64,000 nucleotides of DNA, taken from positions 80,303-144,302 of the IMG/VR virus record IMGVR_UViG_3300024239_000011; one strand, written 5' to 3'. The number at the start of each line of letters is the position of its first letter. The stretch's first letter is position 1. This stretch comes from a virus. A program made the position numbers and the translations under genes. Below the pieces are notes generated by a model, which saw nothing but the letters and a program-made list of their open reading frames with translations, searched no databases and had not been told where the DNA came from. Shown here one piece after another: positions 2,914 to 63,056 of the stretch.

Positions 2914-2935
2914 GGTCTTTTAGTTGGTCGAGAAT

Positions 2936-3823: not shown

Positions 3824-3838
3824 CGTCTACCTGCGTTT

Positions 3839-4238: not shown

Positions 4239-4260
4239 AAGACCGCCGAGAATATTGGTC

Positions 4261-4659: not shown

Positions 4660-4860
4660 GGCGATCTCCTGTCTCTCTTTTGGGCGGTTTCGAACCGCCG
4701 AACCATGAGTAGATACTACCAGGGGTTTGATACCATGTCAACAGGTCGGACAACTTTTTCTTCGATTTTCTTTAGCATACAAGAACAACAAGTAATTCCA
4801 TTTTGTGGACGACTTTCATGTGGACATAAATATGGCTTTAACCCGGTCATGAGGTGAAAC

Positions 4861-5214: not shown

Positions 5215-5220
5215 GCCCCC
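5195..5220. terminator. intrinsic terminator between convergent genes
   Basis: AAAAAGGGGGCTTAAGCCCCCTTTCTCTTT. Confidence 0.7.
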
Positions 5221-5227
5221 TTTCTCT

Positions 5228-6781
5228 TTACCAGTGTGCCAAGATCAGCGGCGTGTCTTGATAAGACTGCCAAATTCGTTCGGTGATATATGGCATCATC
5301 GGATGTGCCAGACGTAGGCATTGATCGAGGCACCGCATAATCGTTCCCAATGCATCCATGTCGTTCTGATCGTACAAACGATCCTTGGACGCCTCGATGT
5401 ACCAATCGCAGAACTCGTGTTTGAAGAACAATCGGAACGCATCCGCCGCTGCTCGGTAATCAAATGCATCCAGGGCATTTGCCATAGTACGTTTTGTTTG
5501 ATCGAGTGATGCGAGGATACGCAGATCATCAGGATGTTGAGACTCGTTCCAGGCAGATGGACGACCCATCCGGTCGAAATGACTGAGACAGAACCGCGAG
5601 GCTTGCCACAGTTTGTTTGCGAACCGTTTTGCAGAATCGAAAATATCGTTCGACAATCGGATATCCTGCCCGGCGGTACCGTTCTCCAAGAACCCGAACC
5701 GCAAAGCGTCACATCCGAATTTTTCGATGATTAGCAGAGGATCAATGCCGTTTCCCTTCGACTTACACATTTTTTCCCCATTGGCGTCACGAATGATGCC
5801 GTGGAGATAGATGGTGTCAAATGCCATCTGATCGGTCAGGGCAAGCCCCATCATCAACATACGGGCACACCAGAAGAATAGGATGTCCGCTGCCGTCTCG
5901 ATCATACTCGCCGGGTAGAAAGTTCGCAGATCGGGCGTGTCGTTTGGCCAGCCCAAAATGGCGAAGGGCCAAATTGCGGACGAGAACCATGTATCAAGGA
6001 CATCGTGATCTTGTCGGATGTCATCCCCCAGAATAGCTCTGGCATCCGCCTCTGTACGTGCCGCGCAAAAAGCACCAGAACCGTTGTACCAAATCGGGAT
6101 ACGGTGTCCCCACCAAATCTGACGCGAAATACACCACGGCTCGATGTTTTCGAGGAAATGACAGAAGGTTTTCCCTTCATATTCCGGGATAATCTTTAGT
6201 TCACCCGCATGATAACGTGCAAGAAGGTCGGTAGCCAGTTGACTAGTGTCCAACCACCACTGCCCATCCTGACGGTAAATCAATCCTTTTTCGAAACACC
6301 GGTTGAACGCCTCTAGGGTGGCGGTGGGATGTTCGGGGCTAAGCGTATACCATTCGCGCGACCAATCACAGCTTGCGCCCAGACGGCGAATTTGCTGGGT
6401 GATGCGCCCACCCGTCGTTTTCTGCCATGCATCTGCTTTGGCAAAATACTGGTCACGGGTTGGTTCGGTAATCCCTTCGGCGGCAAGCTCAGCCTTAATC
6501 TTAGCATCGGTTGCCAAACCCGCATGATCAGTACCGGGCTGCCATAGTGCATTAAAGCCCTGCATGCGCTTGTACCGGATCGTCGTATCCTGAAGGGTGG
6601 TGAAAAGTGCATGCCCCATGTGCAGTTGCCCAGTGATATTGGGCGGCGGCATTGGGATGTTGAAGGCTGGTGCCTCTGGGTTCATGCTTGGCTTAAAAAA
6701 GCCATTATTTTCCCAATGCGCGTAGATGTTCGGTTCTTCGGTTTTATAGTCGAAGTTCCGAGTTAGTTTGTTACGTCCCAC
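5228..6781 (-). CDS. valS: valyl-tRNA synthetase-like class Ia aaRS catalytic core, lacking CP1 editing domain and C-terminal domains
   Basis: HIGH motif PPPNITGQLHMGHA, WQPGTDHAGLAT, ISRQIWWGHRIPIWY, KMSKS-like KMCKSKGNG, start of anticodon-binding helix GCDALRF...NKLWQASRF. Only ~290 aa separate HIGH from KMSKS (ValRS normally ~500), so the editing domain is absent. Confidence 0.85.
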   Translation of the reverse strand: MGRNKLTRNFDYKTEEPNIYAHWENNGFFKPSMNPEAPAFNIPMPPPNITGQLHMGHALFTTLQDTTIRYKRMQGFNALWQPGTDHAGLATDAKIKAELAAEGITEPTRDQYFAKADAWQKTTGGRITQQIRRLGASCDWSREWYTLSPEHPTATLEAFNRCFEKGLIYRQDGQWWLDTSQLATDLLARYHAGELKIIPEYEGKTFCHFLENIEPWCISRQIWWGHRIPIWYNGSGAFCAARTEADARAILGDDIRQDHDVLDTWFSSAIWPFAILGWPNDTPDLRTFYPASMIETAADILFFWCARMLMMGLALTDQMAFDTIYLHGIIRDANGEKMCKSKGNGIDPLLIIEKFGCDALRFGFLENGTAGQDIRLSNDIFDSAKRFANKLWQASRFCLSHFDRMGRPSAWNESQHPDDLRILASLDQTKRTMANALDAFDYRAAADAFRLFFKHEFCDWYIEASKDRLYDQNDMDALGTIMRCLDQCLRLAHPMMPYITERIWQSYQDTPLILAHW

Positions 6782-6860
6782 ATGGTCATTTCGTTATCCT
6801 CCATAGTTTGAGTGACCAACCAAAACGATAAACAAATATTTTGGCTATGGCTATTTATTT

Positions 6861-7208
6861 TTGTTAGAATCCGGGGGAAAGCGAGGAATCATGCTTAACT
6901 TTTTTTTGCGTGTGAATAACCCCTTTAAAAAGGATACCCATTCAAATTTCCACCATCTATGGGGCTGGCACAAATCATTGACCCAATATAGGGAATTCGA
7001 AATCGAAACATATTATAGTCCGATGATCGTTGATGTTGAAATTGTGTTTGAAATGAAGGGACGTGATCACGCTGGTCCCCGAATCACCATTGGTATACTT
7101 GGATGGACAATTAGCGCATCAATCTATGATAATCGCCATTGGGATTATGATGCCGGATATTGGGAACAGGATGTGGTAGGGGATGACGGTACTGCCCCGC
7201 CTTCGTGA
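6861..7208 (+). CDS. hypothetical protein
   Basis: 115-aa ORF. Confidence 0.35.
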   Translation: MLESGGKRGIMLNFFLRVNNPFKKDTHSNFHHLWGWHKSLTQYREFEIETYYSPMIVDVEIVFEMKGRDHAGPRITIGILGWTISASIYDNRHWDYDAGYWEQDVVGDDGTAPPS

Positions 7209-16109: not shown

Positions 16110-16193
16110 GATGGTAGATTGGCGATCCTGAGAGGATTCGAACCCCCCTTTTCAGCATCCGACTACGGTTAAGCGGGTAGAAGCCGCCCCCGG
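16110..16193 (-). tRNA. 84-nt type II tRNA, anticodon unresolved
   Basis: acceptor GATCCTG/CAGGATC+G+CCA, T arm GGGGG-TTCGAAT-CCTCT; D stem GCCG/CGGC with 4-nt loop; anticodon arm ambiguous (possible CTTCTAC loop, anticodon TCT, or Leu/Ser type). Confidence 0.45.
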
Positions 16194-16353
16194 CTACAGG
16201 ATCAAATTTCTATACTTCCACTCCGTTATTTGGTATGGTCGAAGCCTTGGCGGCTACCGCCAAGGACATCTACTCCCAGTTGACCGGGTTTGAAGACCCC
16301 GCAGCTATTTCCGCTTTCTTCGACGGACAGCGCGTCGGTCCTGCCAACTAAAT

Positions 16354-19320: not shown

Positions 19321-19410
19321 TGGAGGACACGGTGGGAATTGAACCCACGAGGGGCTTTCGCCCGTGCGATTAAAAGTCGCATGTTCTCAACCAACAAGAA
19401 CGTCGTGTCC
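19321..19410 (-). tRNA. type II tRNA, anticodon TTT (Lys codons), U73
   Basis: acceptor GGACACG/CGTGTCC, D GTTC/GAAC, anticodon arm TGCGA-CTTTTAA-TCGCA, variable arm GGGC-GAAA-GCCC, T arm GTGGG-TTCAATT-CCCAC. Confidence 0.55.
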
Positions 19411-19666: not shown

Positions 19667-19754
19667 TGGAGACGCGAGTGGGAGTCGAACCCACCTGACC
19701 TTTCGGTACAAACGGTTTTGCAGACCGCCGACTAAACCGCTCATCCATCGCGCC
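19667..19754 (-). tRNA. type II tRNA, anticodon GCA (Cys codons), U73
   Basis: acceptor GGCGCGA/TCGCGTC (G2:U71), anticodon arm GCGGT-CTGCAAA-ACCGT, variable ACC-GAAA-GGT, T arm GTGGG-TTCGACT-CCCAC. Confidence 0.5.
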
Positions 19755-19946
19755 CGTTTAAATTGGTTGCTGGATGCACCCTCTCACATCCCGGTCGAGC
19801 GTCCACGACCTTTCAGATCAAGTAACGACACCGCTTATCGGGGTCCAGCACTCCCGACTCACCGTTGCATGCCGATAACCCCATGTCGTCGGGGTCGTCA
19901 GCAGGGGCTTCGGTGAGGGTAGGCGATAGGTGAACATCGCCTATCT

Positions 19947-23320: not shown

Positions 23321-23409
23321 TGGAGAACCGGGTGGGAATCGAACCCACGACGGGCTTTCGCCAGCAGTTTAAGAGACTGTTCCTACCAACCAACAGTAGG
23401 CTCCGGTTC
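23321..23409 (-). tRNA. type II tRNA, anticodon CTT (Lys codons), U73
   Basis: acceptor GAACCGG/CCGGTTC, D CCTA/TAGG, anticodon loop CTCTTAA, variable GGC-GAAA-GCC, T arm GTGGG-TTCGATT-CCCAC; paralog of 19321. Confidence 0.55.
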
Positions 23410-23597: not shown

Positions 23598-23673
23598 TGG
23601 TTGCGGGGGTGGGATTTGCACACCACGACCTCTTGGGTATGAACCAAGTAAGCTACTGCTGCTCTACCCCGCA
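23598..23673 (-). tRNA. tRNA-Met(CAT), copy 1 of 80-nt near-perfect duplicate
   Basis: acceptor TGCGGGG/CCCCGCA, anticodon arm CTTGG-TTCATAC-CCAAG, CCA; copy at 23986. Confidence 0.6.
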
Positions 23674-23985: not shown

Positions 23986-24061
23986 TGGTTGCGGGGGTGG
24001 GATTTGCACACCACGACCTCTTGGGTATGAACCAAGCAAGCTACTGCTGCTCTACCCCGCA
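23986..24061 (-). tRNA. tRNA-Met(CAT), copy 2 of duplicate
   Basis: one mismatch relative to 23598..23673. Confidence 0.6.
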
Positions 24062-25299: not shown

Positions 25300-26121
25300 T
25301 TATTGATGCGCCACTACCTTCGAAATCGCTTCTTTGATTATACTCAAATCACCGTAAGCGATTTTTACCTTAGTTCTAATGTACTCCATTTTCTCGTGAT
25401 CCTGTTGCATGACCAGATGGTTCTTCGGATCAAGATATAAGTCAAAATCTGGCAAATAAAAATCTGGAAAATATAGATGTTTAATAGCTCGGTTGTCATG
25501 CCATTCTATGGGTTTCGGGCGTATCCATTTGATTCCCATGGTATCAAGCAATGATGCAATTTCCAGTTCCCACGTACTCTGCAATTTTATTACTTTGTTT
25601 TGGTAGCGATTGAAATAACAAATGACCTTCGCCCCTAATGTTGGCTTGCTATTATTTCTCAATGCGACGATACAAGCCATTCCCCCACATGTCTTTCGTT
25701 GTTTTAATGCATCCTTGCCACAAATAGGACAGTGTTTAGCAGGGGTTTGTTGCTTTGAACACCCGATAGCATCCAATGCAGCATGCCACGACCCGAAAAC
25801 ACTCACGTAATGACAATAATGCGGATATTTCAACCCGTCAAACATAGTGCTGGTTGGTATTGTCCCGGTTTCATCTGCATATCGTCGTAATTCTGATAGC
25901 AAAACATCATTGGAATGTTTTGTTCCTTTATTATTACCAAACTTAACAATAGGCAGACCAGCTTCGGTCAATGCACTATTCCAATTTCCGAACACATTCT
26001 TATAAGTGTTGGAACCAAATAGATAACCCTCAGGCTTGGGGCGAAAATCCCTTTCACGGGGCACCCTTCCAAATTCCTTGTAAAAACGTTGCAACTCTGC
26101 TAACATGATCTCTCTAGACAT
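25300..26121 (-). CDS. homing-endonuclease-like protein: N-terminal helix-turn-helix repeats plus C-terminal PD-(D/E)xK-like nuclease motif
   Basis: repeated F..G.W..ALTEAGL-type repeats; C-terminal W.LE...L...GIKW....YFPDFYLPDFDLYLD. Confidence 0.55.
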   Translation of the reverse strand: MSREIMLAELQRFYKEFGRVPRERDFRPKPEGYLFGSNTYKNVFGNWNSALTEAGLPIVKFGNNKGTKHSNDVLLSELRRYADETGTIPTSTMFDGLKYPHYCHYVSVFGSWHAALDAIGCSKQQTPAKHCPICGKDALKQRKTCGGMACIVALRNNSKPTLGAKVICYFNRYQNKVIKLQSTWELEIASLLDTMGIKWIRPKPIEWHDNRAIKHLYFPDFYLPDFDLYLDPKNHLVMQQDHEKMEYIRTKVKIAYGDLSIIKEAISKVVAHQ

Positions 26122-30536: not shown

Positions 30537-30989
30537 TTACGCGGTGACCATTTCCTTGGCGATCCGGCTGGCGGTCGCGTTGTCGAACTGACCAGCATAC
30601 TGGGAATTCAACGCACCCATGATCTTGCCCATGGACTTCTGTTCCTTGGGAAGGTTCTGCTCGCTGATGATCTGGGTGACCAGTTCACGAATCTTGTCCT
30701 CGGACATCTGCGGGGGTAGGAAGGTTTCGAGGATAACCGCTTCAGCTTCACAGACAGCCGCTTCGTCGGCACGACCAAGGTTCGCATAGCCAGCGCCAGT
30801 CTCACGCTTCTGACCGACGTTCTTCTTGATCGTGGCGATCACATCCAGATCAGTCGGCTCCTTGCGCTCCTTACCGGAAGTCATGGCAGTATTCACATCC
30901 GAAATGACCTGACGGATCAACCCCAGCTTCACGGAGTCTTTGGCGCGCATAGCATCCTTCATAGATGCCTTCAAAGTCTCCATCAATGC
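30537..30989 (-). CDS. yqeY: GatB/YqeY-domain protein
   Basis: LIRQVISDV...GKERKEPTDLDVIATIKKNVGQKRE...MGKIMGALNSQYAGQFDNATASRIAKEM; ATG chosen at MSALMETLKA. Confidence 0.7.
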   Translation of the reverse strand, partial: ALMETLKASMKDAMRAKDSVKLGLIRQVISDVNTAMTSGKERKEPTDLDVIATIKKNVGQKRETGAGYANLGRADEAAVCEAEAVILETFLPPQMSEDKIRELVTQIISEQNLPKEQKSMGKIMGALNSQYAGQFDNATASRIAKEMVTA

Positions 30990-31098
30990 GCTCATGACAC
31001 TATACTCCCTTCCAAATGTGCGCGGACAATACACGCCGTGATCGCATTTGGCAAGAAAATATTGTGTAACTGATTGGGTCATCTTTACGAAAAGAAAA

Positions 31099-31123
31099 GG
31101 GGGCGCAAGTGCGCCCCCTTTAT
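31099..31123. terminator. intrinsic terminator downstream of flotillin operon
   Basis: GGGGGCGCA-agt-GCGCCCCC then TTT. Confidence 0.75.
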
Positions 31124-31138
31124 GAAGGTCAACCAACC

Positions 31139-32815
31139 CTATTCCTCATTATCGTCCGACATGTCTCCGTCCACATCATCAACGAATTCATCGGTGAGTA
31201 GGGAAGAAGCACCAGTAACGCTGCTGATATCCATACCAATTTGCTTGGCAAGGGCATCAACTGCCGGGCTTTGCAGGCGGAAATTCAAAAGACCATCGAT
31301 CACCTGATTGGCGACGCTACCACCGGTAGCCGTAGGCTTACCATCAGTGCCGGTCATCACGCCACCGACACCGCCCAAACCGGACAACATGTGGACGCGC
31401 ACGCCTTCGATGTTCTCAAGCGGCTTAACCATCTGTTCGAGAATGCTGGGCATCTGCTCGATAGCGGTCAGGCGGACGCGGTTGGACAGAACCTTGATGT
31501 CCAGAGTATTTTCGGCTTCGTTCAAAGCACGACGACCAGCAGCTTCAACTTCAAAGTCCTTCGCTTTGGCTTCCGCTTTGATCTGAATGGTTTCGGCTTC
31601 GGCTTCCGCCTCGATAATCAATGCAGCAGCGCGATCTTCTGCCGCAGCCTTTTCAGCAGCGGCAGCGACCTTGATACCCACGGCATCCTGTTCGGCTACC
31701 TTGGTCGCTTCGATCACGGCGATGTTCTTGTTACGCTCGGCAATCGCAGTTTCCTTGGCGGTAACCACCGCTTCTTCTGCGGCGACCGCAGAAGCTCGTG
31801 CCTTGGCAGCATCCGCTTGTGCCTTCGAGTTCTCTTCAGACTTCTTGGCGATGGCGATCTTCTGATCCTGCTGGGCGAGTTCAATTGCCTTGGCGGCGTC
31901 GATCTCGTTTTCCTTCACCTTCTGGTTCTTGGCAATACGGGCTGCCTCAGTTGCCTGCTCAGCCGTAATACGGGCAATTTCAGCGGCACGGTTCTGCTCG
32001 GCTTCCTGCTCAGCAATCACACGCTGCTGTTCCGCACGACGGGTGGCAACTTCCCGTTCTTGTGCCATCTGCGCATACTCTTGTTCACGAGAAATTTCCA
32101 AGCTGCGCTGATTGGCTTTGAGGTTTTCTTCCTCAATCGCAACACGGGTTTTCGCCTGGATTTCGTTGCGCTGCCGATTTTTTTCTTCGGTAATGGAAGT
32201 CAGCTTTGCCAAACCCTCAGCGTCAAACGCATTGTTCGGATTGAAAAATTCCGCAGGAGTCTGGTCAAGACCGGTCAATGAAACCGACTCAAGTTCCAGA
32301 CCATTCTTGGCAAGGTCTTCGGCAACCGTAGTCTGCACCCGCTGGACAAAAGTCACGCGGTTCTCATGGAGTTCCTGCATTTCCATCTGGGCAGCGACCG
32401 AACGCAGGGCGTCCACAAACTTACCTTCGACCAACGCCGACAATTCACGCGGCTCCATGGTACGGCGACCAAGGGTTTGAGCGGCAGTCGCAATACCGTC
32501 ACTATCAGGCTTCACCCGGACATAGAATTCCGCCATCACATCAACGCGCAGGCGATCCTTGGTAATCAAAGCTTCCTGGCGTTTACGCTCGACCTGAAGT
32601 CGAAGAGTTTGCATGTTCACGTCAATGACTTCGTGAAACATCGGGATCACAACGGCGCCGCCGTCCTTGACCACTTTCTGACCACCAGCACCGGTACGGA
32701 CAAATGCCCGTTCCTTAGTCGCACGGCGATAAAGCTTCATCAGCACCAGACCGAAGCCAATAAACCCAACAAACAACACACCAACAACCGTGGCAATAAA
32801 ACCCCAGTTCTCCAT
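31139..32815 (-). CDS. yqiK: flotillin-like SPFH/band-7 protein (YqiK family)
   Basis: N-terminal TM helix, SPFH domain, long Ala/Glu/Lys-rich coiled-coil flotillin region; antisense Ala-rich ORFs rejected. Confidence 0.85.
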   Translation of the reverse strand: MENWGFIATVVGVLFVGFIGFGLVLMKLYRRATKERAFVRTGAGGQKVVKDGGAVVIPMFHEVIDVNMQTLRLQVERKRQEALITKDRLRVDVMAEFYVRVKPDSDGIATAAQTLGRRTMEPRELSALVEGKFVDALRSVAAQMEMQELHENRVTFVQRVQTTVAEDLAKNGLELESVSLTGLDQTPAEFFNPNNAFDAEGLAKLTSITEEKNRQRNEIQAKTRVAIEEENLKANQRSLEISREQEYAQMAQEREVATRRAEQQRVIAEQEAEQNRAAEIARITAEQATEAARIAKNQKVKENEIDAAKAIELAQQDQKIAIAKKSEENSKAQADAAKARASAVAAEEAVVTAKETAIAERNKNIAVIEATKVAEQDAVGIKVAAAAEKAAAEDRAAALIIEAEAEAETIQIKAEAKAKDFEVEAAGRRALNEAENTLDIKVLSNRVRLTAIEQMPSILEQMVKPLENIEGVRVHMLSGLGGVGGVMTGTDGKPTATGGSVANQVIDGLLNFRLQSPAVDALAKQIGMDISSVTGASSLLTDEFVDDVDGDMSDDNEE

Positions 32816-32832
32816 AGAACTAACTCCTAAGA

Positions 32833-33459
32833 TTAGTATTTTTGAGCACGAAAGTGGTTTTCACCCAGACACTTAGTCAGGAGTATGCGTGACCCCTGCT
32901 CAATTTCGCCGTCATTGGGTTCCACTCGCAGATAGTGAACTTGACCATACTGATCTGTACATTTGGCTTCCGCCGGAAACCCCGGACGTGCAGTTCCAAT
33001 GGTAATCCAAGCTTCTCCACCAACGAAATCACGGATGGTCACTGCACTGGTGATTTCTTTTGGAAAGATTCGCGCGGTAATCACGCAGATAATCTTCGCC
33101 GGGACAACTGCAACCGGAACCACCAACAACCCGGCGATCCACACCGGAACCATTCCCCCGAAAATACCAGCGGCGATCCACTGAACAGTCCAACCGATCA
33201 ACCCGTAGCACATCATGAACGCCATCAGAATGATAAGGAACGGAACCTTACCGAAGTACATCCACCCAAGGAAATGAGTCAACACCCCAGCATCAACGTG
33301 AATATCAACATCCACATCAGCATCGGTATCCATCCCCGCAAATTCACCAACAGAGTGATCCACCGATAACCCGAATGCTTGGAGTACGGTGATCGCAAAC
33401 ATAAGTCCAATTGCAACCGTAAACGGCACAACCGAATCATTGGTAAAGAATTCAAACAT
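32833..33459 (-). CDS. yqiJ: NfeD-like membrane protein (YqiJ family)
   Basis: multiple TM helices then C-terminal beta domain; directly upstream of flotillin gene. Confidence 0.65.
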   Translation of the reverse strand: MFEFFTNDSVVPFTVAIGLMFAITVLQAFGLSVDHSVGEFAGMDTDADVDVDIHVDAGVLTHFLGWMYFGKVPFLIILMAFMMCYGLIGWTVQWIAAGIFGGMVPVWIAGLLVVPVAVVPAKIICVITARIFPKEITSAVTIRDFVGGEAWITIGTARPGFPAEAKCTDQYGQVHYLRVEPNDGEIEQGSRILLTKCLGENHFRAQKY

Positions 33460-33545
33460 GGCAAGTCCTTGGCCGGTGGTTTGTATCTTCTTATCCCATA
33501 ATCAACGGGCAGTCAAAGAAGAAAGAGAGGGGAATGTCCCCTCCC

Positions 33546-33971
33546 TTACCCCAACATACGCAGGATAAACGGAACGCTTGGGTCACGAACTTCAATGATT
33601 GCGTTCCACGGCACGAATACCGAAGTTGCAACCCCACTGAAGTAAATTACCACCGTGAACCCTTCATCAGAAATTTCCAGATCATGGAACTGGTTCTGAA
33701 GCACGATGACAGTTTCCCCACGCAAATGAAGGGGGAACCCCGATACCCCGAAAATCGTGGTATCGAGGGTGATGTAGAAATGGTGTCCGTGATCATCAAC
33801 ATTAGGATCATCACGGAAATTGGATAAGACCTCACGAATCATCCGAATGTTTGCAAGATGGTGTTCTCGCCGGAAGATACCGTCGTAATCAAATGCAGTG
33901 GGACTGTTCCCGGTCGCCGCTGATTTGTCTACCTGGGATTTTTTACCAGGGAAATGAATTACGTTTGTCAT
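33546..33971 (-). CDS. sspB: SspB-like (ClpXP adaptor fold) protein
   Basis: GETVIVLQNQFHDLEISDEGFTVVIYFSGV...VFVPWNAIIEV parallels the SspB core; ATGA overlap with upstream NTase gene. Confidence 0.5.
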   Translation of the reverse strand: MTNVIHFPGKKSQVDKSAATGNSPTAFDYDGIFRREHHLANIRMIREVLSNFRDDPNVDDHGHHFYITLDTTIFGVSGFPLHLRGETVIVLQNQFHDLEISDEGFTVVIYFSGVATSVFVPWNAIIEVRDPSVPFILRMLG

Positions 33972-35137
33972 CAGTCAATCAACTGGATTGTTTTCGAGGA
34001 TGGCTTGGGCTTGATCTTGGTAGGTTCCAAATCTTTTTCGGAGGGGTCTACCACACGGGTCACCAGGGCACGCTTGAGACGGACGACGCCACCTTCTTCA
34101 AGGATGATGTCGTTAACACATCCCGGCTTCAATTCAATTACTACAGCCTTGTCGCGATAGGTGCAATAATCAAACGCCTGTTTAATCGTCTGCTTGGCGT
34201 AGATGTATGGGTCACCAGACTGCACGTATTCACCAACTACATACTTAAATGTTGGTTTGTACATCGAGACTAGCTCATCGCCATTACGATAGACCTTCTT
34301 GAAGAACACACGATCCTTAAAGATTTCACCAACATCAACCATCTTACCATTTACTGGGCGGCAAGGAACCGGCTCATAGTCATCGCTATCCGTATAGACC
34401 CGTGCATAGAACTTTCCGTTCAGTTGATAATACTCGATCTCACGTTTACCAACTGCGAGAATGACTTCTTCTGCGCTCCCTACAGGGGATTTAGTCGGAA
34501 AAGTCAGACGGTCGTTCATTGCAGCAAACATGTTCTCTATTGAGAACGGGGTATCTTCAGGTACCCGCACCGCCTCGCCGTAAATACCGCCAATCTGATC
34601 AACCAGTTCATCCCATGAATTGATTGGTTTCAGCGCACAAGCCGCCAGGATTTTGAAGTTCTCAAACTTACCAATGGTGTATCCACGTTCCTTGTACTTG
34701 TTTACACGCCATGCGGACGCATACGGGAACCGTGTCTTCGGGTTAAAACGAAGAACTCGCTGACAGCAATCTTCCAAAAAATCGTCGTGGAGAACGAATT
34801 TCTTGGTATCAACGTCATATGCCCCCATGCACACCGTAAAGTCGAAACATTCAAAAATTTTCTCAGCAGTTTCGAACGTATCAAAATGCATGATTTGGAT
34901 CGGGATATCATCGCCCTGCACAAATGTCACGGCACGTTCCGAAACATCGGCACAAAAGTACCCGCTCTCGAACATCAAATGTACTAAATCCTCAAACGCC
35001 GCTTCCGTTTTCGGATATACATCGATGTCGTTGATTGGTTTGTTCGTATATATGGAGGTAATTGAGCCACCCGCAATAAAGCAATCTTTGGCTTCCTTGG
35101 GGAGATACCCGGCTATCATCGTTGCCTTTGTCATCAC
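33971..35137 (-). CDS. tRNA nucleotidyltransferase / poly(A) polymerase family (Pol-beta superfamily) enzyme
   Basis: head-domain motifs GGS-x12-DIDVY and FECFDFTVCMGAYDV (RRDFTINA-like) then RVLRF. Confidence 0.65.
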   Translation of the reverse strand: MMTKATMIAGYLPKEAKDCFIAGGSITSIYTNKPINDIDVYPKTEAAFEDLVHLMFESGYFCADVSERAVTFVQGDDIPIQIMHFDTFETAEKIFECFDFTVCMGAYDVDTKKFVLHDDFLEDCCQRVLRFNPKTRFPYASAWRVNKYKERGYTIGKFENFKILAACALKPINSWDELVDQIGGIYGEAVRVPEDTPFSIENMFAAMNDRLTFPTKSPVGSAEEVILAVGKREIEYYQLNGKFYARVYTDSDDYEPVPCRPVNGKMVDVGEIFKDRVFFKKVYRNGDELVSMYKPTFKYVVGEYVQSGDPYIYAKQTIKQAFDYCTYRDKAVVIELKPGCVNDIILEEGGVVRLKRALVTRVVDPSEKDLEPTKIKPKPSSKTIQLID

Positions 35138-35247
35138 ACGACCTATGTTTTGTACGGTTGAGTGATTCTTAGGTTATCCAATGCATAACGGTCAAAATTT
35201 CTTTTACATAGAAAACAAGGCATAAATACTATCTGAAAGGATTTCAG

Positions 35248-35574
35248 ATGAACAAATACGAGAGGTTGAAGCAAGACCTCGACACAAATGGCACCGGTAC
35301 CATGAAATGTTTCGGATCATCCATGCTTCCAATTCTTACCAATGGAACTACAAACACTTACGTTCGGGAAAATGAGTACAAAATTGGTGATATTGTATTC
35401 TGTAAAGTTAATGGAAGATATATAGACGCCCACAAGATAACAAAAAAAGCCGCTGATGGGAGATACATGATTGCGAACAATAACGGTCATGAAAATGGAT
35501 GGACCAGAACCATTTATGGCAGAGTAATCAAAGCGGTCGATAATCACGGAAACGTGAAAGAATTCACCCGGTAG
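35248..35574 (+). CDS. S24/S26-type peptidase-fold small protein
   Basis: GSSMLPIL motif. Confidence 0.45.
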   Translation: MNKYERLKQDLDTNGTGTMKCFGSSMLPILTNGTTNTYVRENEYKIGDIVFCKVNGRYIDAHKITKKAADGRYMIANNNGHENGWTRTIYGRVIKAVDNHGNVKEFTR

Positions 35575-35594
35575 GCGCCCTACGGCGCCTTTTT
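35574..35594 (+). terminator. intrinsic terminator
   Basis: GGCGCCCTACGGCGCC then TTTTT. Confidence 0.75.
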
Positions 35595-35673
35595 CATTTT
35601 ATACGCACTCGAAAAGTTTTAATGAGATCGGGTATCCACTCCGCATTCTCAAAATCATCAAAATCCCGAGAAA

Positions 35674-36234
35674 ATGTTGATCATGCTACTAGTGACGTGG
35701 CGCGATGATGACGCGGTGGAGCGTCAGGCAAAAACTCTATTACATCCACGTGGATGGTTTGTCGCAGAGACGTATACACCAGACGAGGATGAGGATGATG
35801 GAACCACGCTATTCCGCATTGAACCGTTCGTCGGACAACGAACAACTGAAATCCCGGACAAGCTTTATCACGCCACCCCTGCACAAAATGTCCCGCGCAT
35901 TCTCAAGCAAGGGCTGATCCCACAACGGGGAAAGCACACCGGAATGTTCGCGGCTACACCAAACCGAATCTATATCGCCAAATCACTTGCCTACGCCGTT
36001 GATATCAAGAATATGCTTCAGAAGCACGATGGCTACAGACAAGACTACGCGATCATCGAGATCGATACGACGAAACTCCGGAAGGGGACGAAATTCTATA
36101 TCGACCCGCAATACCATTCTGGCGTCTACACGACCACGCCTGTTCCACCCGCCGCGTTGCGCGTACTCGGCAATGAGGAAGTGGAACAGTGTCCGGAACC
36201 GGATTTCGACTACGAACTAGCGATGAATGTCTAA
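35674..36234 (+). CDS. kptA: RNA 2'-phosphotransferase (Tpt1/KptA family) with N-terminal extension
   Basis: KLYHATP...GLIPQRGKHTGMFAA...DYAIIEIDTTKLRKGTKFYIDP..GVYTTTPVPP. Confidence 0.7.
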   Translation: MLIMLLVTWRDDDAVERQAKTLLHPRGWFVAETYTPDEDEDDGTTLFRIEPFVGQRTTEIPDKLYHATPAQNVPRILKQGLIPQRGKHTGMFAATPNRIYIAKSLAYAVDIKNMLQKHDGYRQDYAIIEIDTTKLRKGTKFYIDPQYHSGVYTTTPVPPAALRVLGNEEVEQCPEPDFDYELAMNV

Positions 36235-36334
36235 CAACCGAGCGATATAGCGTTCTGCGATTTGATCATGAAAAAGCCCCTTAATGGTCCAAACCTGCAT
36301 TAGTATTTAGCAAGTTCTCCCATTAAGGGGCTAT

Positions 36335-36629
36335 TGGATCGGGGAGAGGGATTCGAACCCCCATAAAGTGGACCCTTACCACTTCGACTTTCGCCGCCCT
36401 CTTTCGAGGTTTGTGGTCTGGACTTTATCTTCACCATAGCTTGCGCCGTAGGTGCTGCCCGTCAAGTCTCTACACCTTCCGCTCTCGCGGCTTGGCTCGG
36501 GATTGGCATTTTACAGCGTTCCCCGAATTTGAGCAGTTCTACATCAAAGGTTTCCCTTTAAGCATCCGGTTTTCCTCTGTGTGGGAGGAAGGTAAAAACC
36601 ACTGGTCCTACCGTTAGACGATCCCCGAA
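36335..36629 (-). tRNA. tRNA gene (best fit Gln-UUG; Lys-UUU or Pro-UGG possible) interrupted in the anticodon loop by a ~221-nt group I (IC3-type) intron
   Basis: 5' exon 36596..36629 TCGGGGA-TC-GTC-TAACGGTAG-GAC-C-AGTGG-TTTT; 3' exon 36335..36374 GGT-CCACT-TTAT-GGGGG-TTCGAAT-CCCTC-TCCCCGA-T-CCA; intervening RNA contains GGATGCTTAAAGGGAAACC, AATCCCGAGCCAAGCCG, GGAAGGTGTAGAGACTTGACGGG and AAGATAAAGTCC, matching the conserved core of cyanobacterial/plastid tRNA-Leu(UAA) group I introns as I recall them. Confidence 0.55.
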
Positions 36630-36678
36630 TAGCGGTGGGAGGTATTTAGCAAAACCCCAACCCCACCGCAATAACTTT

Positions 36679-37272
36679 TTACCATCGTGTCGGTAACTGA
36701 GCTTCACCCGCAATCAAGGACGGCTCATAGATAATATCCTTCGGGTCATGATCTTTGTACCCAAACCCACGATACTTTTTCAACCGATCAGCCTTGACAT
36801 CACCACCCGGCTTGGATGGACGCAACGTCATAGTCTTATTGTCCCAGAAGAAGTTATCGGTACATATCACTACGCGATTAAACACGTCAAGCGCACCTTG
36901 ACACACCGTCATATCAAACGACTCAAAAATACTCATGGGCGAATCGAAAGTACGTTCGACCAACTGTATACTAACATAGTGATCTTCTCCGATCAGAATG
37001 CTTTCATAGCTAGTGGCGTTGGTACTATTGTAGGCAACTTCCTCACCACCCGCATATTCAGACAAATAATCATTGAATTTTGCATGATCGTTGCTCGACC
37101 GTGTGTAGCAGTCCACATCACCATCTAGAAGATTACGACCAGTTAGAAGCCGAGAAACAAATCCCCCGGCAATCATAACCTCGACCCCACTATCACTGAT
37201 GAACTTGAAAAGTTCTTTAAATGGATAATCATGGGGGTATTTCTGGGTTAGACTGAACAACGGTATGATCAT
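36679..37272 (-). CDS. short paralog of the tRNA-NTase/poly(A) polymerase head domain
   Basis: AGGFVSRLLTG-x-DGDVDCY and FESFDMTVCQGALDV motifs. Confidence 0.55.
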   Translation of the reverse strand: MIIPLFSLTQKYPHDYPFKELFKFISDSGVEVMIAGGFVSRLLTGRNLLDGDVDCYTRSSNDHAKFNDYLSEYAGGEEVAYNSTNATSYESILIGEDHYVSIQLVERTFDSPMSIFESFDMTVCQGALDVFNRVVICTDNFFWDNKTMTLRPSKPGGDVKADRLKKYRGFGYKDHDPKDIIYEPSLIAGEAQLPTRW

Positions 37273-37728: not shown

Positions 37729-38043
37729 TTACCGAATCTTCAGGTAAAGATTCTCACCGTCTCGGTGCTGATCCAACTGCTGCTTGGTGGGTTCGTAGAA
37801 ATCCATCAGCGCAGGAACAGTCAGTCCGAGGTCGTAGGCGTACCGAAGAAGCTGTCGAATCTGCTCCTGGCTGAACATGCCTTCATTGGCAAAATGATCG
37901 GTCATCAATTCAACATGAAATGCAGCTTCTTCATTGCCGCGTAGCTTTGCCATGTCGAACACGTTGCGTATGAGATCAAGCAACGGCTCAATCATTTCAT
38001 CACGAATTTTCATTAGCTTACCTTCTGTGGAATCGTAGTTCAT
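37729..38043 (-). CDS. hypothetical protein
   Basis: 104-aa ORF overlapping the start of the HNH gene. Confidence 0.4.
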   Translation of the reverse strand: MNYDSTEGKLMKIRDEMIEPLLDLIRNVFDMAKLRGNEEAAFHVELMTDHFANEGMFSQEQIRQLLRYAYDLGLTVPALMDFYEPTKQQLDQHRDGENLYLKIR

Positions 38044-38650
38044 CTACCTCGATATCAATGTCGTACTTTGCCCACAGCAAGGTCAAGAAATCAGTGGCTT
38101 CTTGCTCACTAAATTCCGACGAAAAAGCAGTCATGTTCAATGCGCGGAATTGCACGCAGCGTCGCAGGTCTTCTTTGATTTGAATGATGTGGGGATGGTT
38201 CTTATATACTTCGCCAATCCGTTGGCGGATGGCATTCAACTTGATGAATTTTGTTCGTTCTGGTGGTAGAACAACCTTATCGGCTTTCTTCCCATTACAG
38301 TTGGCACACATGGGTTGCCCATTCGCCAATGTGTCGTTCCCGCCTTTTGATTTCGGAACGATGTGATCCAACGTCATCAGATCACGACCACCGTTCCGCA
38401 TCCCATACAGGTTCATAATCGAAAGAGTACAGTCCTTGGGCGTATCCAACCATATTTCAACGAAATGATGTCCTTCCAGCCCGCAAGAAACGCATTTGGT
38501 GCCTTTCTCAACAAACAACTGAAGGGTACGAGATATCCGCAGACGATTACCACTGGGTAGCCAAATGCTGCGTTTGCCATCGGCACGTGCCTGGGTCAGC
38601 AACGGCATAATCTCAGCAATAGGATAACTCGCTAAGGGCTGTTCGGACAT
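38018..38650 (-). CDS. HNH nuclease with Zn finger
   Basis: CVSCGLEGHH ... DHIVPKSKGGNDTLANGQPMCANCNGKKADK. Confidence 0.7.
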   Translation of the reverse strand: MSEQPLASYPIAEIMPLLTQARADGKRSIWLPSGNRLRISRTLQLFVEKGTKCVSCGLEGHHFVEIWLDTPKDCTLSIMNLYGMRNGGRDLMTLDHIVPKSKGGNDTLANGQPMCANCNGKKADKVVLPPERTKFIKLNAIRQRIGEVYKNHPHIIQIKEDLRRCVQFRALNMTAFSSEFSEQEATDFLTLLWAKYDIDIEVDELRFHRR

Positions 38651-42122: not shown

Positions 42123-42998
42123 TTAATTAAGGGAAGCCACCTGGGTTTGTTTGGACTTCCGATCAAATTTTTTGAAGTCGTATTGTTTGATATGACCCTT
42201 GATTTTTGAAACGTATTTGTGTCCTAGGGTCGAATACGACATTATTCCGGTGAGCAATTCACTACTATCCAGTGGTTGCTCGTTCTTACGCATATCCCAC
42301 CGCGTTTGGCGAAATTTATTGTAAGCCGGATGTGTGTTCAGATTCCGCATATACGAACGGATTGATGCACGTGGGTTGTTGAAACAGGGATGGCTCCCAC
42401 CATCTGATGCGGACACCGCGCAAGTGCTGGTGCCTTTCTGTCCAAAGAACCCATTGGTCTTCTGAGCCACACGGGATGTTCCCCATCCGCTTTCTTCAAC
42501 CGCTTGTGCCAGCGCCATTGAGACCGGAACGACATCGACGCGCTTTACAAGTTCGCCAATGTCTCGGGGGTCGGAAACCTTGTATTCTGCCATTTTGGTT
42601 TGCAACCATTCCTTCTCACTTACAGTGAGACGGGGTTTGGAAGCAAGCCTGAGAATGGTACGTCGGTCATGCAAGATTTCATCCTGTACTGCCCCGATCA
42701 TAGGTACCATCATCTTGACAAATTCCGACTTTAATTCTTCACCCTCCATTTGGGTGAGTTCGATTGGGTAATTGGGCGCGTATTTGCTACGCTGCACGGG
42801 CTGCTCAGCAGTTTGAACAACCGGCGTCGGCGCATGGGGGGCGGGGGTTCGATCCTTGTACAGACCGTATGACCCAGCCGCTAAAGTCGCGGCGACGGCA
42901 CTAGCAGCGACAGCACTACGGAACCCCGTCATGCTTTCTGCCATATCTACCTGCTGTGTTAGTTCATCATCTATAATCTCGATAAGCCTCATTGTCAT
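42123..42998 (-). CDS. glucosaminidase-domain peptidoglycan hydrolase (Bax/FlgJ-like; possible lysis enzyme)
   Basis: LAQAVEESGWGTSRVAQKTNGFFGQKG. Confidence 0.7.
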   Translation of the reverse strand: MTMRLIEIIDDELTQQVDMAESMTGFRSAVAASAVAATLAAGSYGLYKDRTPAPHAPTPVVQTAEQPVQRSKYAPNYPIELTQMEGEELKSEFVKMMVPMIGAVQDEILHDRRTILRLASKPRLTVSEKEWLQTKMAEYKVSDPRDIGELVKRVDVVPVSMALAQAVEESGWGTSRVAQKTNGFFGQKGTSTCAVSASDGGSHPCFNNPRASIRSYMRNLNTHPAYNKFRQTRWDMRKNEQPLDSSELLTGIMSYSTLGHKYVSKIKGHIKQYDFKKFDRKSKQTQVASLN

Positions 42999-43315: not shown

Positions 43316-44293
43316 CTACGTTTGAAGTGATGCTGCTTTCACTTTTTGAGTATAGGTTATTACACAATGGTCGGTGATCCCGTCTAGTAATCCCAGCGAG
43401 CCATTGTTTACCGCTCCAAATTTGTGCAAAACCCATTGACCTCGCATAATCACATCATCCACCCAACGATGCCACCAGCGAGCGTTGTGAATTAATTCGC
43501 CCACATGAGAAATGTAGATCATATGCCCGGTATGACGGAAAAAGATTGGTGGTGGTAACTGAGGTACGATGTCGTCGTTATGAACAAAGCGAAAGTGCGG
43601 AATAAGGTACTTCACACGCTTGGCAAATTTGCTATCTCCGACTCTCGGGCTACCGAACGTATAGAGTCCGTGACCACCAAAGCGACTTGCCGCAATGGTC
43701 GCTAATGCACCACCAAGAGAATGCCCGCACCACCATATAGATCGACCGTGTTTATTTGCTTGGATACAGCGTTCCATTTCTGGCCAAATCAAATCCAGTG
43801 CATGTTGGAAACCGTTATGAACTTTTCCGCCGTTCTCGGAGTCTGTAAATAGAAAATCCATATCAGTTTTGATGTCTTTGAACTCATTCAATTCGGTGCC
43901 ACGAAATGCTATTACAATTATATGGGTACCGATGGCAATGAATGCCTGGGTACCTTCACAATCATAAAAATGAACATCCACAAACCCAGCATTAATAAGT
44001 TGGGCAGCAACACGCTCATTGTCTCGCAAATATACCAACCGGGAGCATTCTACCAGCCATGTTGCGTTGATAGGACTATAAAGCAATGTGTCATAATCAA
44101 ATGGATGGGTTTGATGATAATCGAACCAGCCATATTTACCCGGAGGATCAATAATATCTAACTTGGAATAGGAAATCACCCCCATAGCACACACCTCGCA
44201 ATTCTCTTGCGAATATTTATGCAGCTTTGGGTAGTTCAGATGTGACGATACAGTGAACTTTGGGATGACCAATTTCTTCGTCATTACGTCCAC
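43316..44293 (-). CDS. class 3 lipase (alpha/beta hydrolase)
   Basis: GHSLGGALA nucleophile elbow. Confidence 0.8.
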   Translation of the reverse strand: MDVMTKKLVIPKFTVSSHLNYPKLHKYSQENCEVCAMGVISYSKLDIIDPPGKYGWFDYHQTHPFDYDTLLYSPINATWLVECSRLVYLRDNERVAAQLINAGFVDVHFYDCEGTQAFIAIGTHIIVIAFRGTELNEFKDIKTDMDFLFTDSENGGKVHNGFQHALDLIWPEMERCIQANKHGRSIWWCGHSLGGALATIAASRFGGHGLYTFGSPRVGDSKFAKRVKYLIPHFRFVHNDDIVPQLPPPIFFRHTGHMIYISHVGELIHNARWWHRWVDDVIMRGQWVLHKFGAVNNGSLGLLDGITDHCVITYTQKVKAASLQT

Positions 44294-44776: not shown

Positions 44777-45823
44777 TTAGGAATAGAGATCGCTATTGAG
44801 GTACTGATCCAATGTATACGCCGTCACAACACTGATGGCGGCGGCGGCGGGTACTGCCACAAAGACCCCAACAAATCCGAACAGTGTAGCGCCTGCCAAC
44901 ACCGCGAAGATCACCATAACCGGGTGAATCCCAATGCTTTCCCCAATCAGTTTTGGGACGAGTACACCACTTTCAACGACATGAACCACCGCAAACACCG
45001 CACCAACAATGGCAAGATGGTACACGTCGTGGAATTGAAGGAACGCGAGGATTAATGCAACCGATACGCCCCCAATCATGGCGACATACGGAATGAATGC
45101 GAAAATACCGGTCAGCATCCCGACAATCAGCCCGAAATCAAGACCGACTAACCACAACCCAACACCATAACCGACCGCAAGGCACGCACAAACCATACCC
45201 TGACCACGGAAGTATGCAGATAGCTTTCCATCAATTTTGGTGGTGATGTGATCAAATGCGGGTTTCACCGACCGAGGGAGATGGAGATGAACCCATTCGA
45301 TCAGTTTTGGCCAATCCTTGACCATGTAATAGGCGACGATTGGGGTTAACGCCAAAAGGGCGAAGAGATGAATTGCCCCAAGGCTTCCTGTGATCATATG
45401 GGATGCAATCGCCCCGGCTTTCTCAAATGCCGCGCTTCCATGTGCCGCTAACGTTTCCTTGAGTTGGGCGATTTGATCATCACTCATATATTGTTTTAAG
45501 TACGGCATGAGTTCGCTCGTGCGTGTATTGAGCGCCATTTTCATGTCAGGGATGCGCTGAATAAGGTTGGTGATTTGATGCCAGATCAGCGGACCCACAC
45601 CAAGTCCAATCATTCCAATAAGCAGGAAGAAAGAACCGACTACGCCACCGGCAGCAACAGATCGCGATACCCCGCGTCGATCCAGTTTTTCAACGAGGGG
45701 ATCAACCAGATACGCAATCACAGCGCCAATCACAAACGGTGCCAGGATAGAAGAAAGGTAGTGGATCAAGACACCAGCGGTGACAATCACCGCCAGCCAA
45801 ACAATAGTTTTTTTCGACATCAT
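44777..45823 (-). CDS. AI-2E family transporter (PerM/YdiK-like membrane protein)
   Basis: 8-TM profile and AI-2E-like N-terminus; my recall of the family. Confidence 0.75.
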   Translation of the reverse strand: MMSKKTIVWLAVIVTAGVLIHYLSSILAPFVIGAVIAYLVDPLVEKLDRRGVSRSVAAGGVVGSFFLLIGMIGLGVGPLIWHQITNLIQRIPDMKMALNTRTSELMPYLKQYMSDDQIAQLKETLAAHGSAAFEKAGAIASHMITGSLGAIHLFALLALTPIVAYYMVKDWPKLIEWVHLHLPRSVKPAFDHITTKIDGKLSAYFRGQGMVCACLAVGYGVGLWLVGLDFGLIVGMLTGIFAFIPYVAMIGGVSVALILAFLQFHDVYHLAIVGAVFAVVHVVESGVLVPKLIGESIGIHPVMVIFAVLAGATLFGFVGVFVAVPAAAAISVVTAYTLDQYLNSDLYS

Positions 45824-62093: not shown

Positions 62094-63056
62094 ATGCGCA
62101 TCAAAGAAATCCTCGAAGATACATCCACATCACCATGGTACTTTGTCATTTCCAAGGATGGTATGGCCAAGGTATTCAATGAAGATGATCCCGAATACCT
62201 GAAGCATATCTGTGATCTGGGCTGGGAAGTTGAATGGGATAGCGCCCGTAGTCCCGAGCAAGGATACCGTTTTGCCCGTGAACATGGATTGAAACCTGTT
62301 GGTCAAAAAGAAAGCCCGCTTGACAATCCGAACTTCCGTAAATGGTTCGCAGGCAGTAAGGTTGTAGACAAGAACGGTAATCCGCTTGTCGCCTACCATG
62401 GCACGTCCCAGGATTTTGAGGCATTCAGTGTGAAACCCACCAAGAACGTTGGTCGTTATGGTTTCAACCGTATTGGGTTCTGGTTTGATACCGACCCCAC
62501 TACCCCTAATTATTTCGCGGGCGATGATGGCGATAGTATTGAAGGGCGTCAGGGTGGTGGAAACGTTATGCCGTGTTACCTGTCGATCAAACACCCATTG
62601 GTTATTACCAGTGAGGCTTTAAGCGCACGAATGGAAGCACAGCTTCGTGATCTGTGGGCACAACATAAGGCGCTCTGGCAGAAATACAACACCGAACGTA
62701 AGGCGACCCCCACTTACGATGATAACCTTCATCGAAAATATAGTGCCCTGTCCAAGAAAATCATGGCTGAAATTGAAGATATCAAAGCTCGGCGCGGGTC
62801 GGATTCTTTCTATAAACTCATGAGCCTACTTCCCCATGGACCAAAGACCAAGGATGCCGATGTTGACCAATTTGTGGCTGACGCGAAAGCCGAGGGATAT
62901 GACGGCATTCTGCTCAAGGATACCCTGGCAGATGACGGCTCCCGTGGTGGGAAGCTGACTGACTGGTGGTTGCCTTTCGACCCCCACCAGATCAAGTCAG
63001 TGTTCAATAAGGGCACGTGGAGTACGGAGACGCCCAAGCTCTCCGAAGGGGCTTAA
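62094..63056 (+). CDS. putative ADP-ribosyltransferase-fold protein (H-G-T class candidate)
   Basis: LVAYHGTSQDFEAF then GRYGF; assignment tentative. Confidence 0.4.
   Translation: MRIKEILEDTSTSPWYFVISKDGMAKVFNEDDPEYLKHICDLGWEVEWDSARSPEQGYRFAREHGLKPVGQKESPLDNPNFRKWFAGSKVVDKNGNPLVAYHGTSQDFEAFSVKPTKNVGRYGFNRIGFWFDTDPTTPNYFAGDDGDSIEGRQGGGNVMPCYLSIKHPLVITSEALSARMEAQLRDLWAQHKALWQKYNTERKATPTYDDNLHRKYSALSKKIMAEIEDIKARRGSDSFYKLMSLLPHGPKTKDADVDQFVADAKAEGYDGILLKDTLADDGSRGGKLTDWWLPFDPHQIKSVFNKGTWSTETPKLSEGA

Follow-up and report, generated by a model that had tools for sequence, protein, structure and literature searches.

Gad2 is one of the few known anti-Gabija proteins. In the Bacillus phage SPbetaL7, deletion of gad2 leads to full sensitivity to Gabija; a homolog from Brevibacillus blocks this defence, and expression of the SPbetaL7 protein, for which AlphaFold predicts a nucleotidyltransferase (NTase) domain, is toxic (10.1101/2023.05.01.538930). 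A review of February 2026 still gives the mechanism of Gad2 as unelucidated and describes Gabija as DNA-targeting (PMC12904381). Here we analyse positions 33546-37272 of a 64,000-nt window taken from the IMG/VR virus record IMGVR_UViG_3300024239_000011 (positions 80,303-144,302 of that record). In this segment a full-length Gad2-family NTase (Gad2L) is followed by an SspB-alpha-type substrate-binding domain (SspBL), and a shorter Gad2 paralog (Gad2S), an ADP-ribosyltransferase (ART)-fold protein, an S24-like protein and an intron-bearing tRNA gene lie nearby. A first-pass annotation, made from the sequence alone, had taken the segment for a functional tRNA maintenance module. It is best read as a set of accessory and counter-defence genes that are expressed independently, with a Gad2-NTase operon that has a new SspB-type partner at its core.

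Other described systems resemble parts of this locus. T4 Pnk-Rnl1 tRNA repair counters the PrrC anticodon nuclease, and to our knowledge the described pathway includes no NTase. Class II tRNA NTases and poly(A) polymerase (PF01743; structures 1miv, 3wfo, 3aql and 3h37) combine an NTase head and neck with a helical body and tail that hold the tRNA. SspB-alpha adaptors, such as those of Caulobacter (2qaz, 2qas) and Agrobacterium (2nys), carry a substrate-binding domain, an acidic linker and a C-terminal ClpX-binding (XB) peptide. Full-length, uncharacterised SspB homologs with altered linker regions are also encoded by large phages, namely Pseudomonas phage pf16 (gp18; PMC5587285) and Erwinia phage RAY (gp039; 10.1101/2023.02.24.529968), where they are proposed to interfere with or use ClpXP and where no NTase partner was reported.

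Two Gad2-family nucleotidyltransferases

Direct BLASTP aligned Gad2L with the Gad2 of SPbetaL7 (WIT28108) at 31% identity over 372 of 388 residues (E 8e-54), a homology that runs the full length of the protein, through the NTase head and neck and the C-terminal beta-rich domain. A tblastn search with Gad2L against 50,697 phage records returned 138 records, including the annotated Gad2 of Bacillus phages SPbetaL6 and SPbetaL7 (E 8e-45 for the latter). Precomputed PF26128 (Gad2) annotation is present on all 120 homologs listed from a collection of 5.8 billion proteins, on 96-100% identical copies of both Gad2L and Gad2S, and on a protein identical to Gad2S in one metagenomic contig (L012). Gad2L itself found no match in our Pfam copy or in the NCBIfam and PADLOC libraries, and its PHROG matches were of unknown function only. 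Within the open reading frame (ORF) that the first-pass annotation had described as a 388-aa tRNA NTase, the motifs AGGS...DID and FDFTVCMGA are indeed present, the spacing of the former being GGS-x11-DID and not GGS-x12-DID. Its probable start is the ATG at 35134, which gives 387 aa.

The second, 197-aa paralog that had been noted is likewise present. Gad2S is 29% identical to the N-terminus of Gad2L over 153 aa (BLASTP, E 2e-12), keeps GG...DxD and FDMTVCQGA, gives a weak Pfam match to DUF2204 (E 1e-4) and is located 1.5 kb from the Gad2L-SspBL operon. When the two NTases were checked for PF01743, the family of the tRNA enzymes, Pfam gave no match; by profile as well as by sequence search both fall in the Gad2 anti-Gabija family, and we assign them to it on these grounds. 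Gad2L and SPbetaL7 Gad2 are alike in the catalytic GG...DxD and FDFT[VI]CMGA motifs, in being homologous from end to end and in being phage-encoded. Here, however, Gad2 sits in a tRNA-rich giant phage, is duplicated as a head-only paralog, has an additional C-terminal tail peptide, and is coupled to an SspB-like gene that is absent from SPbetaL7 and all other sampled lineages.

Predicted fold of Gad2L

The AlphaFold model of Gad2L, built on 54 homologs, is confident (pLDDT 91.6). In it, residues ~1-230 form a head and neck like those of class II tRNA NTases, residues ~230-365 a C-terminal domain rich in beta structure, and residues 366-388 a disordered tail that ends in KTIQLID. In a Foldseek search with this model the top 46 chains were all CCA-adding enzymes, A-adding enzymes or poly(A) polymerase, matched over ~130-230 aligned positions that correspond to the head and neck, and to this extent the CCA-adding/poly(A)-polymerase fold call of the first-pass annotation is borne out. 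The helical tRNA-binding body and tail of class II enzymes are missing from the model. Gad2L is therefore predicted to share its head and neck with class II CCA-adding and poly(A) enzymes, its closest structural relatives, with the tRNA-holding part replaced by the beta-rich domain. Gad2 at large thereby gains a clear fold assignment: its head and neck resemble those of class II tRNA NTases and poly(A) polymerase, and the beta-rich domain attached to them is new.

The residues invariant across the Gad2 family are G23, G24, D37, D39, F98, D99, T101, R144, K147 and Y148, together with Q126-R127, and the Pol-beta catalytic carboxylates are intact in Gad2L. Compared by eye with Escherichia coli Cca, these invariants include neither RRD nor EDxxR: no RR precedes the Asp and there is no conserved ED. 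Neither phmmer nor a profile search found a significant match to Gad2L among PDB sequences, and hhalign of the Gad2 family profile with E. coli Cca matched motif A alone (36 columns, E 0.08), which is too weak to settle homology. Gad2L thus differs from the class II enzymes in having no significant match to their sequence profile, and by eye its family does not appear to conserve their RRD and EDxxR motifs.

The SspB-type partner

SspBL matches Pfam PF04386 with an E-value of 1.4e-17 (64.6 bits against a cutoff of 27) and the alphaproteobacterial SspB-alpha structures 2nys, 2qaz and 2qas with E ~4e-9, and it is 34-42% identical to bacterial SspB-alpha over the substrate-binding domain. Although it has this domain in common with the cellular adaptors, it stops four residues past it (profile positions 105-156 are unmatched), whereas the bacterial relatives continue with an acidic linker and an XB tail of the type ...VVPFRRR or ...IDAFRKKGNA. 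In place of linker and tail SspBL has a 26-residue N-terminal extension that opens with MTNVIHFPGKK and continues into a hypervariable linker (residues 14-25), and the VIHFPGKK of this extension resembles the VVPFRRR and IDAFRKK of the bacterial XB tails. SspBL further differs from the adaptors in being phage-encoded and coupled to an NTase. The first-pass annotation had described an NTase translationally coupled, by ATGA, to an SspB-like protein; both the coupling and a true SspB domain stand, and the junction between the Gad2L stop and the SspBL start reads TGATG, a 1-nt overlap, and not ATGA. A strong terminator-like hairpin directly past SspBL ends the unit, and Gad2L-SspBL is predicted to be a discrete two-gene, translationally coupled operon, whose synteny is kept in three relatives (L002, L009 and L013). 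As had been supposed, such an NTase-SspB operon appears undescribed.

Comparison of the window with a 96-99% identical relative showed where the two proteins vary. Of the differences in Gad2L, 11 of 14 fall in tail residues 368-385 while the terminal KTI[Q/P]LID is kept; all five differences in SspBL fall in residues 14-25, and MTNVIHFPGKKSQ and the domain are unchanged. The closest SspB-less Gad2 homologs (P0005 and P0006) end short of the Gad2L tail. Conserved terminal peptides on hypervariable linkers look like adaptor-degron-tether interactions, a pattern that suggests contact between Gad2L and SspBL. Most likely SspBL would bind the conserved C-terminal KTI[Q/P]LID on the disordered Gad2L tail, and via its N-terminal VIHFPGKK peptide it may tie Gad2L to host ClpXP, a link by which the activity of this enzyme, toxic in its SPbetaL7 version when expressed, would be limited or timed. 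That SspBL acts on Gad2L through the tail, possibly linking it to ClpXP, is a tentative proposal with the odds leaning against it. The more specific version, in which the two proteins would form an adaptor-controlled pair with inverted SspB topology, the XB-like motif having shifted from the C- to the N-terminus to dock the ClpX N-domain and hand Gad2L to ClpXP, we regard as decidedly unlikely; if true, SspBL would be the first protease adaptor dedicated to an anti-defence protein. The locus presents a naturally occurring arrangement with two Gad2 genes, one of them coupled to an SspB-type adaptor domain, and this suggests that phages may regulate or exploit anti-defence enzymes via host ClpXP.

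SspBL could instead be co-transcribed with Gad2L and act independently of it, as a host decoy or anti-adaptor that captures ssrA-tagged proteins or other substrates of SspB, or pairs with host SspB as a heterodimer, but delivers nothing to ClpXP. SspBL would then reprogramme host proteolysis and Gad2L would separately counter defence. Such a role fits a protein that keeps the whole substrate-binding domain while lacking linker and XB tail, and it fits the phage homologs pf16 gp18 and RAY gp039, with their altered linkers and no reported NTase partner. The distribution of the two genes also fits. Most Gad2 genes have no SspB partner: none was seen beside the Gad2 homologs at 65% and 52% identity, in SPbetaL7 or at any other sampled locus. 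The SPbetaL7 gene 3' of gad2, considered as an SspB-like candidate, was ruled out, having no Pfam match. An SspB alignment search of IMG/VR yielded three loci, none with Gad2 nearby. Set against these points, the 1-nt overlap and the terminator directly past the pair argue for stoichiometric co-expression, the Gad2L tail has a conserved terminal peptide in this lineage that is absent in P0005 and P0006, and a conserved N-terminal peptide resembling XB tails would be needless for a pure decoy. We judge an independent decoy to be rather unlikely.

Single-sequence searches of IMG/VR with SspBL and with Gad2L returned no relatives, and SspBL has no PHROG match. Its sole tblastn match in the 50,697 phage records is MT836065, an unverified and unannotated record in which no Gad2 homolog was detected and whose neighbouring ORFs resemble, by eye, thymidylate synthase (thyA) and dihydrofolate reductase; the record is possibly bacterial.

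Genomic context of Gad2 and the nature of its substrate

We surveyed Gad2 loci from 12 isolate phages, six metagenomic lookups and 80 IMG/VR contigs, which form ~26 clusters at 60% identity. By Pfam, the 102 neighbours of 13 representative loci are mostly DNA replication and recombination genes, the families including AAA_24, sliding clamp, ATP-dependent DNA ligase, SSB, ERF, DnaB_2 and DNA polymerase III alpha. In J2-1 a DNA ligase lies immediately upstream of Gad2, and the order in L031 is exonuclease-Rad52-x-Gad2-SSB. This usual context again sets Gad2 apart from the class II tRNA NTases. The theme common to Gad2 neighbourhoods is enzymes that handle nucleic-acid ends, and the fold of Gad2 together with its ligase, recombinase, SSB and polynucleotide kinase (PNK) neighbours points towards nucleic-acid 3' ends as the substrate.

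On these grounds, Gad2L would use nucleoside triphosphates early in infection to add nucleotides at free nucleic-acid 3'-OH groups, the likeliest substrate being phage DNA ends or replication and recombination intermediates and an RNA end being less likely. Ends extended in this way would escape recognition or attack by a Gabija/OLD-type nuclease-helicase defence. To the claim that the substrate is a nucleic-acid end and the chemistry 3'-end nucleotide addition, with DNA ends favoured, we give an even chance. Gad2L might instead nucleotidylylate a protein target (GajA/GajB, for example, or some other host factor) or produce a small molecule, derived from nucleotides, that holds off the defence nuclease, and SspBL would then recognise or deliver the modified protein. 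The unique C-terminal beta-rich domain could bind a protein or ligand, and the toxicity of SPbetaL7 Gad2 is compatible with such a target. The recurrent neighbours of Gad2, however, are ligases, recombinases, SSB and PNK, which work on nucleic-acid ends, and we consider a protein or small-molecule target highly unlikely.

The reading that the first-pass annotation had preferred is tRNA repair, in which the NTases would re-tail or repair tRNA 3' ends by CCA- or poly(A)-like addition and the ART-fold protein would remove 2'-phosphates after ligation, so that host or phage tRNAs are maintained against anticodon nucleases or CCA-targeting toxins. In its favour, Gad2L has a head and neck closest to those of poly(A) polymerase and the CCA-, A- and CC-adding enzymes, Tpt1 is the nearest match to the ART lobe, and the phage invests heavily in translation, with ~40 tRNAs, a gene resembling valyl-tRNA synthetase, and YqeY. 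OLD/PARIS-type ABC+TOPRIM relatives of GajA are, moreover, tRNA-cleaving (10.64898/2026.07.10.737580).

Further support comes from a few relatives. L030 has a tight operon with overlapping genes (2582-5863) in which Gad2 (51% identical) stands between T4-type RNA ligase 1 and an AAA_33 kinase, separated from them by a 70-aa and a 97-aa gene, respectively. In GAP32 (L017, 4090-10280) an HD protein, Gad2, RnlA and PseT lie inside 5 kb, the HD protein two genes upstream of Gad2 and RnlA and PseT at 1.5 and 3.3 kb from it, and in L077 Rnl1 and PseT are found 7-9 kb away. Gad2 thus adjoins components of T4-type Pnk-Rnl1 repair in some phages, a possible RNA-repair association in those lineages. Rnl1-like genes occur in two of the 80 IMG/VR Gad2 loci, and since the linkage is held to L030 (tight), GAP32 (near) and L077 (loose), we keep it as a lead and not as a rule. 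Gad2 also abuts a tRNA array in L011, a relative of this phage, and in the Salmonella phage PVP-SE1 (L029, Vequintavirinae; 5466-6882) the homolog lies ~200 bp past a 22-tRNA array. The PVP-SE1 record shows this homolog as two overlapping frames (gp079 and gp078); a frameshift, a mistake in sequencing or decay to a pseudogene could each account for the split.

Other evidence speaks against this reading. Counting these two loci and one contig with a single tRNA, a tRNA lies within 2 kb of Gad2 in 3 of 90 loci, that is in 3 of 26 clusters; the other 23 lineages have none, which rules out a general Gad2-tRNA linkage. The 64-kb window holds no ligase or kinase that could complete a T4-type pathway: tblastn with Rnl1, RnlA, PseT and AAA_33 queries found nothing in it, and no RNA ligase, RtcB, PNK or DNA ligase was detected among 80 further window ORFs (E 1e-5). 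The partners that the first-pass annotation proposed to look for are found beside some Gad2 homologs in other phages and not in this window. The NTases belong to the Gad2 family by profile, with no PF01743 match, an hhalign alignment to E. coli Cca confined to motif A, RRD and EDxxR (as judged by eye) outside the invariant residues, and no tRNA-binding body or tail in the model. The ART-fold protein lacks the catalytic Arg-His-Arg lobe of Tpt1, CCA is encoded in all ~40 tRNAs, the genes sit in separate transcription units, Gad2 homologs lie mostly in replication and recombination modules, and Gabija, according to the review cited above, targets DNA. This evidence does not support a functional tRNA maintenance module, and we consider tRNA repair very improbable. 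The attractive label of a 'tRNA repair toolkit' is worth correcting, since it would otherwise be passed on whenever phage regions so rich in tRNAs are read automatically or by eye.

A Gad2-family anti-defence NTase operon with an SspB-type partner is, in our judgement, probably the best explanation overall. Several points count against it. The closest solved structures all act on tRNA or RNA 3' ends, and Gad2 stands beside RNA ligase 1 and PNK in two to three lineages and beside tRNA arrays in two, so that the substrate may be RNA. Gad2L is just 31% identical to the validated member of a family in which no protein has a known biochemical activity or substrate. The PF26128 assignment comes from precomputed annotation of near-identical and homologous proteins and not from a direct scan, the Pfam copy used apparently being without PF26128. 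The interaction between the Gad2L tail and SspBL is inferred from two near-identical lineage variants and a motif resemblance, and the pairing is held to one phage lineage, which deprives it of co-evolutionary support.

Layout of the segment and its relatives

Features of the segment are collected in Table 1. The first-pass annotation was largely correct in that each feature it named was found where it had been placed; what needed amending were the motif spacing, the gene junction and the Tpt1 and S24 labels. The genes fall into separate transcription units. We read the 3.7 kb as a mosaic in which at least five accessory genes are transcribed separately, set in a stretch of a large phage genome that is dense in tRNA genes. 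Neither the S24-like gene nor the intron-bearing tRNA would be a partner of Gad2L-SspBL; both would be its neighbours.

Table 1. Features of the analysed segment, in window coordinates.
Feature	Positions	Strand	Description
Terminator-like hairpin	33523-33547	-	11-bp stem and T-rich tail, immediately past the SspBL stop
SspBL	33546-33971	-	141-aa SspB-alpha-type substrate-binding domain, PF04386
Gad2L	33971-35137	-	Full-length Gad2-family nucleotidyltransferase, 388-aa ORF from GTG
S24-like protein	35248-35574	+	108 aa, GSSMLP motif, sub-threshold S24/S26 Ser-Lys peptidase similarity
Terminator-like hairpin of S24-like gene	35573-35590		Past the 108-aa ORF
ADP-ribosyltransferase-fold protein	35674-36234	+	186 aa, Tpt1/KptA-like NAD+ lobe
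Intron-bearing tRNA gene	36335-36628	-	ARAGORN and Rfam RF00028
Gad2S	36679-37272	-	197-aa Gad2-family paralog, NTase head domain only

Copies of the segment at 94-99.6% DNA identity, with identical gene order, are present in four metagenomic contigs. Megablast of the region against the 50,697 phage records gave no match, and PADLOC gave none for seven proteins of the region. One relative, L009, carries a 684-bp insertion (L009 1593-2277; window ~35660) that separates the S24-like gene from the ART gene, encodes a 203-aa ORF without significant Pfam match and lengthens the ART ORF to 229 aa; the arrangement of the window, without the insertion, is common to L012 and L013.

Directly downstream of Gad2L-SspBL (31139-33459, minus strand) lie genes for a YqiJ-type membrane protein (PF21001, PF07290) and a 558-aa flotillin/SPFH protein (PF01145, PF15975). 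The pair is closed by a strong terminator and followed by a YqeY-domain gene (30537-31136), and the order is identical in L009. A flotillin/NfeD-like pair is unusual phage cargo.

The ART-fold and S24-like proteins

Tpt1/KptA carries three of its four catalytic tetrad residues, Arg-His...Arg, in an N-terminal RNA lobe. The 186-aa protein had been taken for a Tpt1/KptA with an extra N-terminal domain. Its match to PF01885 is sub-threshold (E 1.5e-4, 22.3 bits, cutoff 26) and covers profile positions 94-167 of 177, and the NCBIfam Tpt1/KptA models give 18-20 bits against 231-239. The matched part is the C-terminal NAD+ lobe (residues ~55-165), for which Tpt1 provides the closest lobe. No profile match precedes residue 55: the Tpt1 RNA lobe is absent, and the N-terminal part, a small unrelated beta-alpha-beta-beta unit, replaces that lobe and is not an addition to it.

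An exhaustive homolog search found at least 874 proteins, mostly of 230-290 aa with the ART domain at the C-terminus, and 46 of these were scanned for domains. The conserved residues of the family are H66, R98-x-Y100 and D144, whereas residues 1-62 show no conserved Arg or His across the 46 members, the conserved positions there being G27-W28, E50 and P61. A weak PF01885 match was seen in 12 of the 46 and DUF7002, DarT or Macro in a few, a Macro, a kinase or a tail domain occurring once each. The protein thus has the NAD+-binding ART lobe in common with Tpt1/KptA, but lacks the N-lobe with its three catalytic residues and has an H-Y-D signature. By these comparisons it is predicted to be an NAD+-using ART-fold enzyme of a separate H-Y-D family and not a Tpt1 orthologue.

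An ART-PolyVal gene is also found elsewhere in the window (62094-63056, plus strand, E 6e-21), and in the relatives at 65% and 52% identity such genes precede Gad2 by 1.2-2.7 kb (L010 5737-6252; L011 4803-5294 and 6325-6825), so an ART gene of some family recurs near Gad2 in this phage group.

The label of an S24-like peptidase-fold protein is tentative. The 108-aa ORF is present, with readable GSSMLP and HKI motifs and weak similarity to PF00717 (21.7 bits, cutoff 23.3) and to TIGR02228 (E 2.6e-4, 20.9 bits against 51.85). The PF00717 score is sub-threshold, and PDB gave no sequence match.

tRNA genes and other cargo of the window

The group-I-intron tRNA was confirmed. Rfam RF00028 scores 52.1 bits against a gathering score of 50 (36395-36598, minus strand), and ARAGORN, with introns allowed, folds the exons as a tRNA-Lys(UUU) with a 220-nt intron (36375-36594) after U36. 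Read as Lys, this tRNA has G37, U1-A72, an encoded CCA and a Gln-like D loop, G37 after U36 being unusual. The predicted splice context, ...UUUUU/A...AAGG/GU..., places a U before the 5' splice site and a G at the intron 3' end, and the sequence can be read as a P1 pairing of GGUUUUU with GAAAACC that has a terminal U-G pair. A tRNA-Gln(UUG), considered in view of U1-A72 and the Gln-like D loop, was not adopted, because it needs a splice one base earlier and a U-A instead of a U-G pair.

ARAGORN found 39 tRNAs in the window (853-56603), all on the minus strand, and Rfam adds a few (3842-3905, 23601-23673 and 23989-24061), plus the intron-bearing one. CCA is template-encoded in all 39 as well as in the intron tRNA. 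At about 40 tRNAs per 64 kb, or one per ~1.6 kb, the window is so tRNA-dense that a tRNA beside the NTases is expected by chance. Among the tRNAs are one with a four-base anticodon 'ctta' (16120-16203), two long tRNA-Cys(GCA) of 88-94 nt, one of which scores as tRNA-Sec in Rfam (19670-19755, 50.6 bits against 47), and tRNA-Lys genes of 89-90 nt at 19321-19410 and 23321-23409. Two HNH homing-endonuclease genes lie among the tRNA genes (38018-38650 and 25300-26121, both on the minus strand; PF01844 E 2e-9, HNH_repeat E 6e-28), and together with the intron and the L009 insertion they point to active mobile-element traffic in the region.

A class I aminoacyl-tRNA synthetase-like ORF of 517 aa (5228-6781, minus strand) matches tRNA-synt_1 (E 6e-107) and an anticodon-binding domain; its best tblastn matches are valyl-tRNA synthetases at ~40% identity, and it is shorter than the cellular enzyme. 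Elsewhere the window encodes an AI-2E transporter (44777-45823), a class 3 lipase (43316-44293) and a glucosaminidase (42123-42998), and further proteins match a response-regulator receiver domain, NUDIX, DUF488-N3a and, weakly, a T4-type prohead protease (Peptidase_S77).

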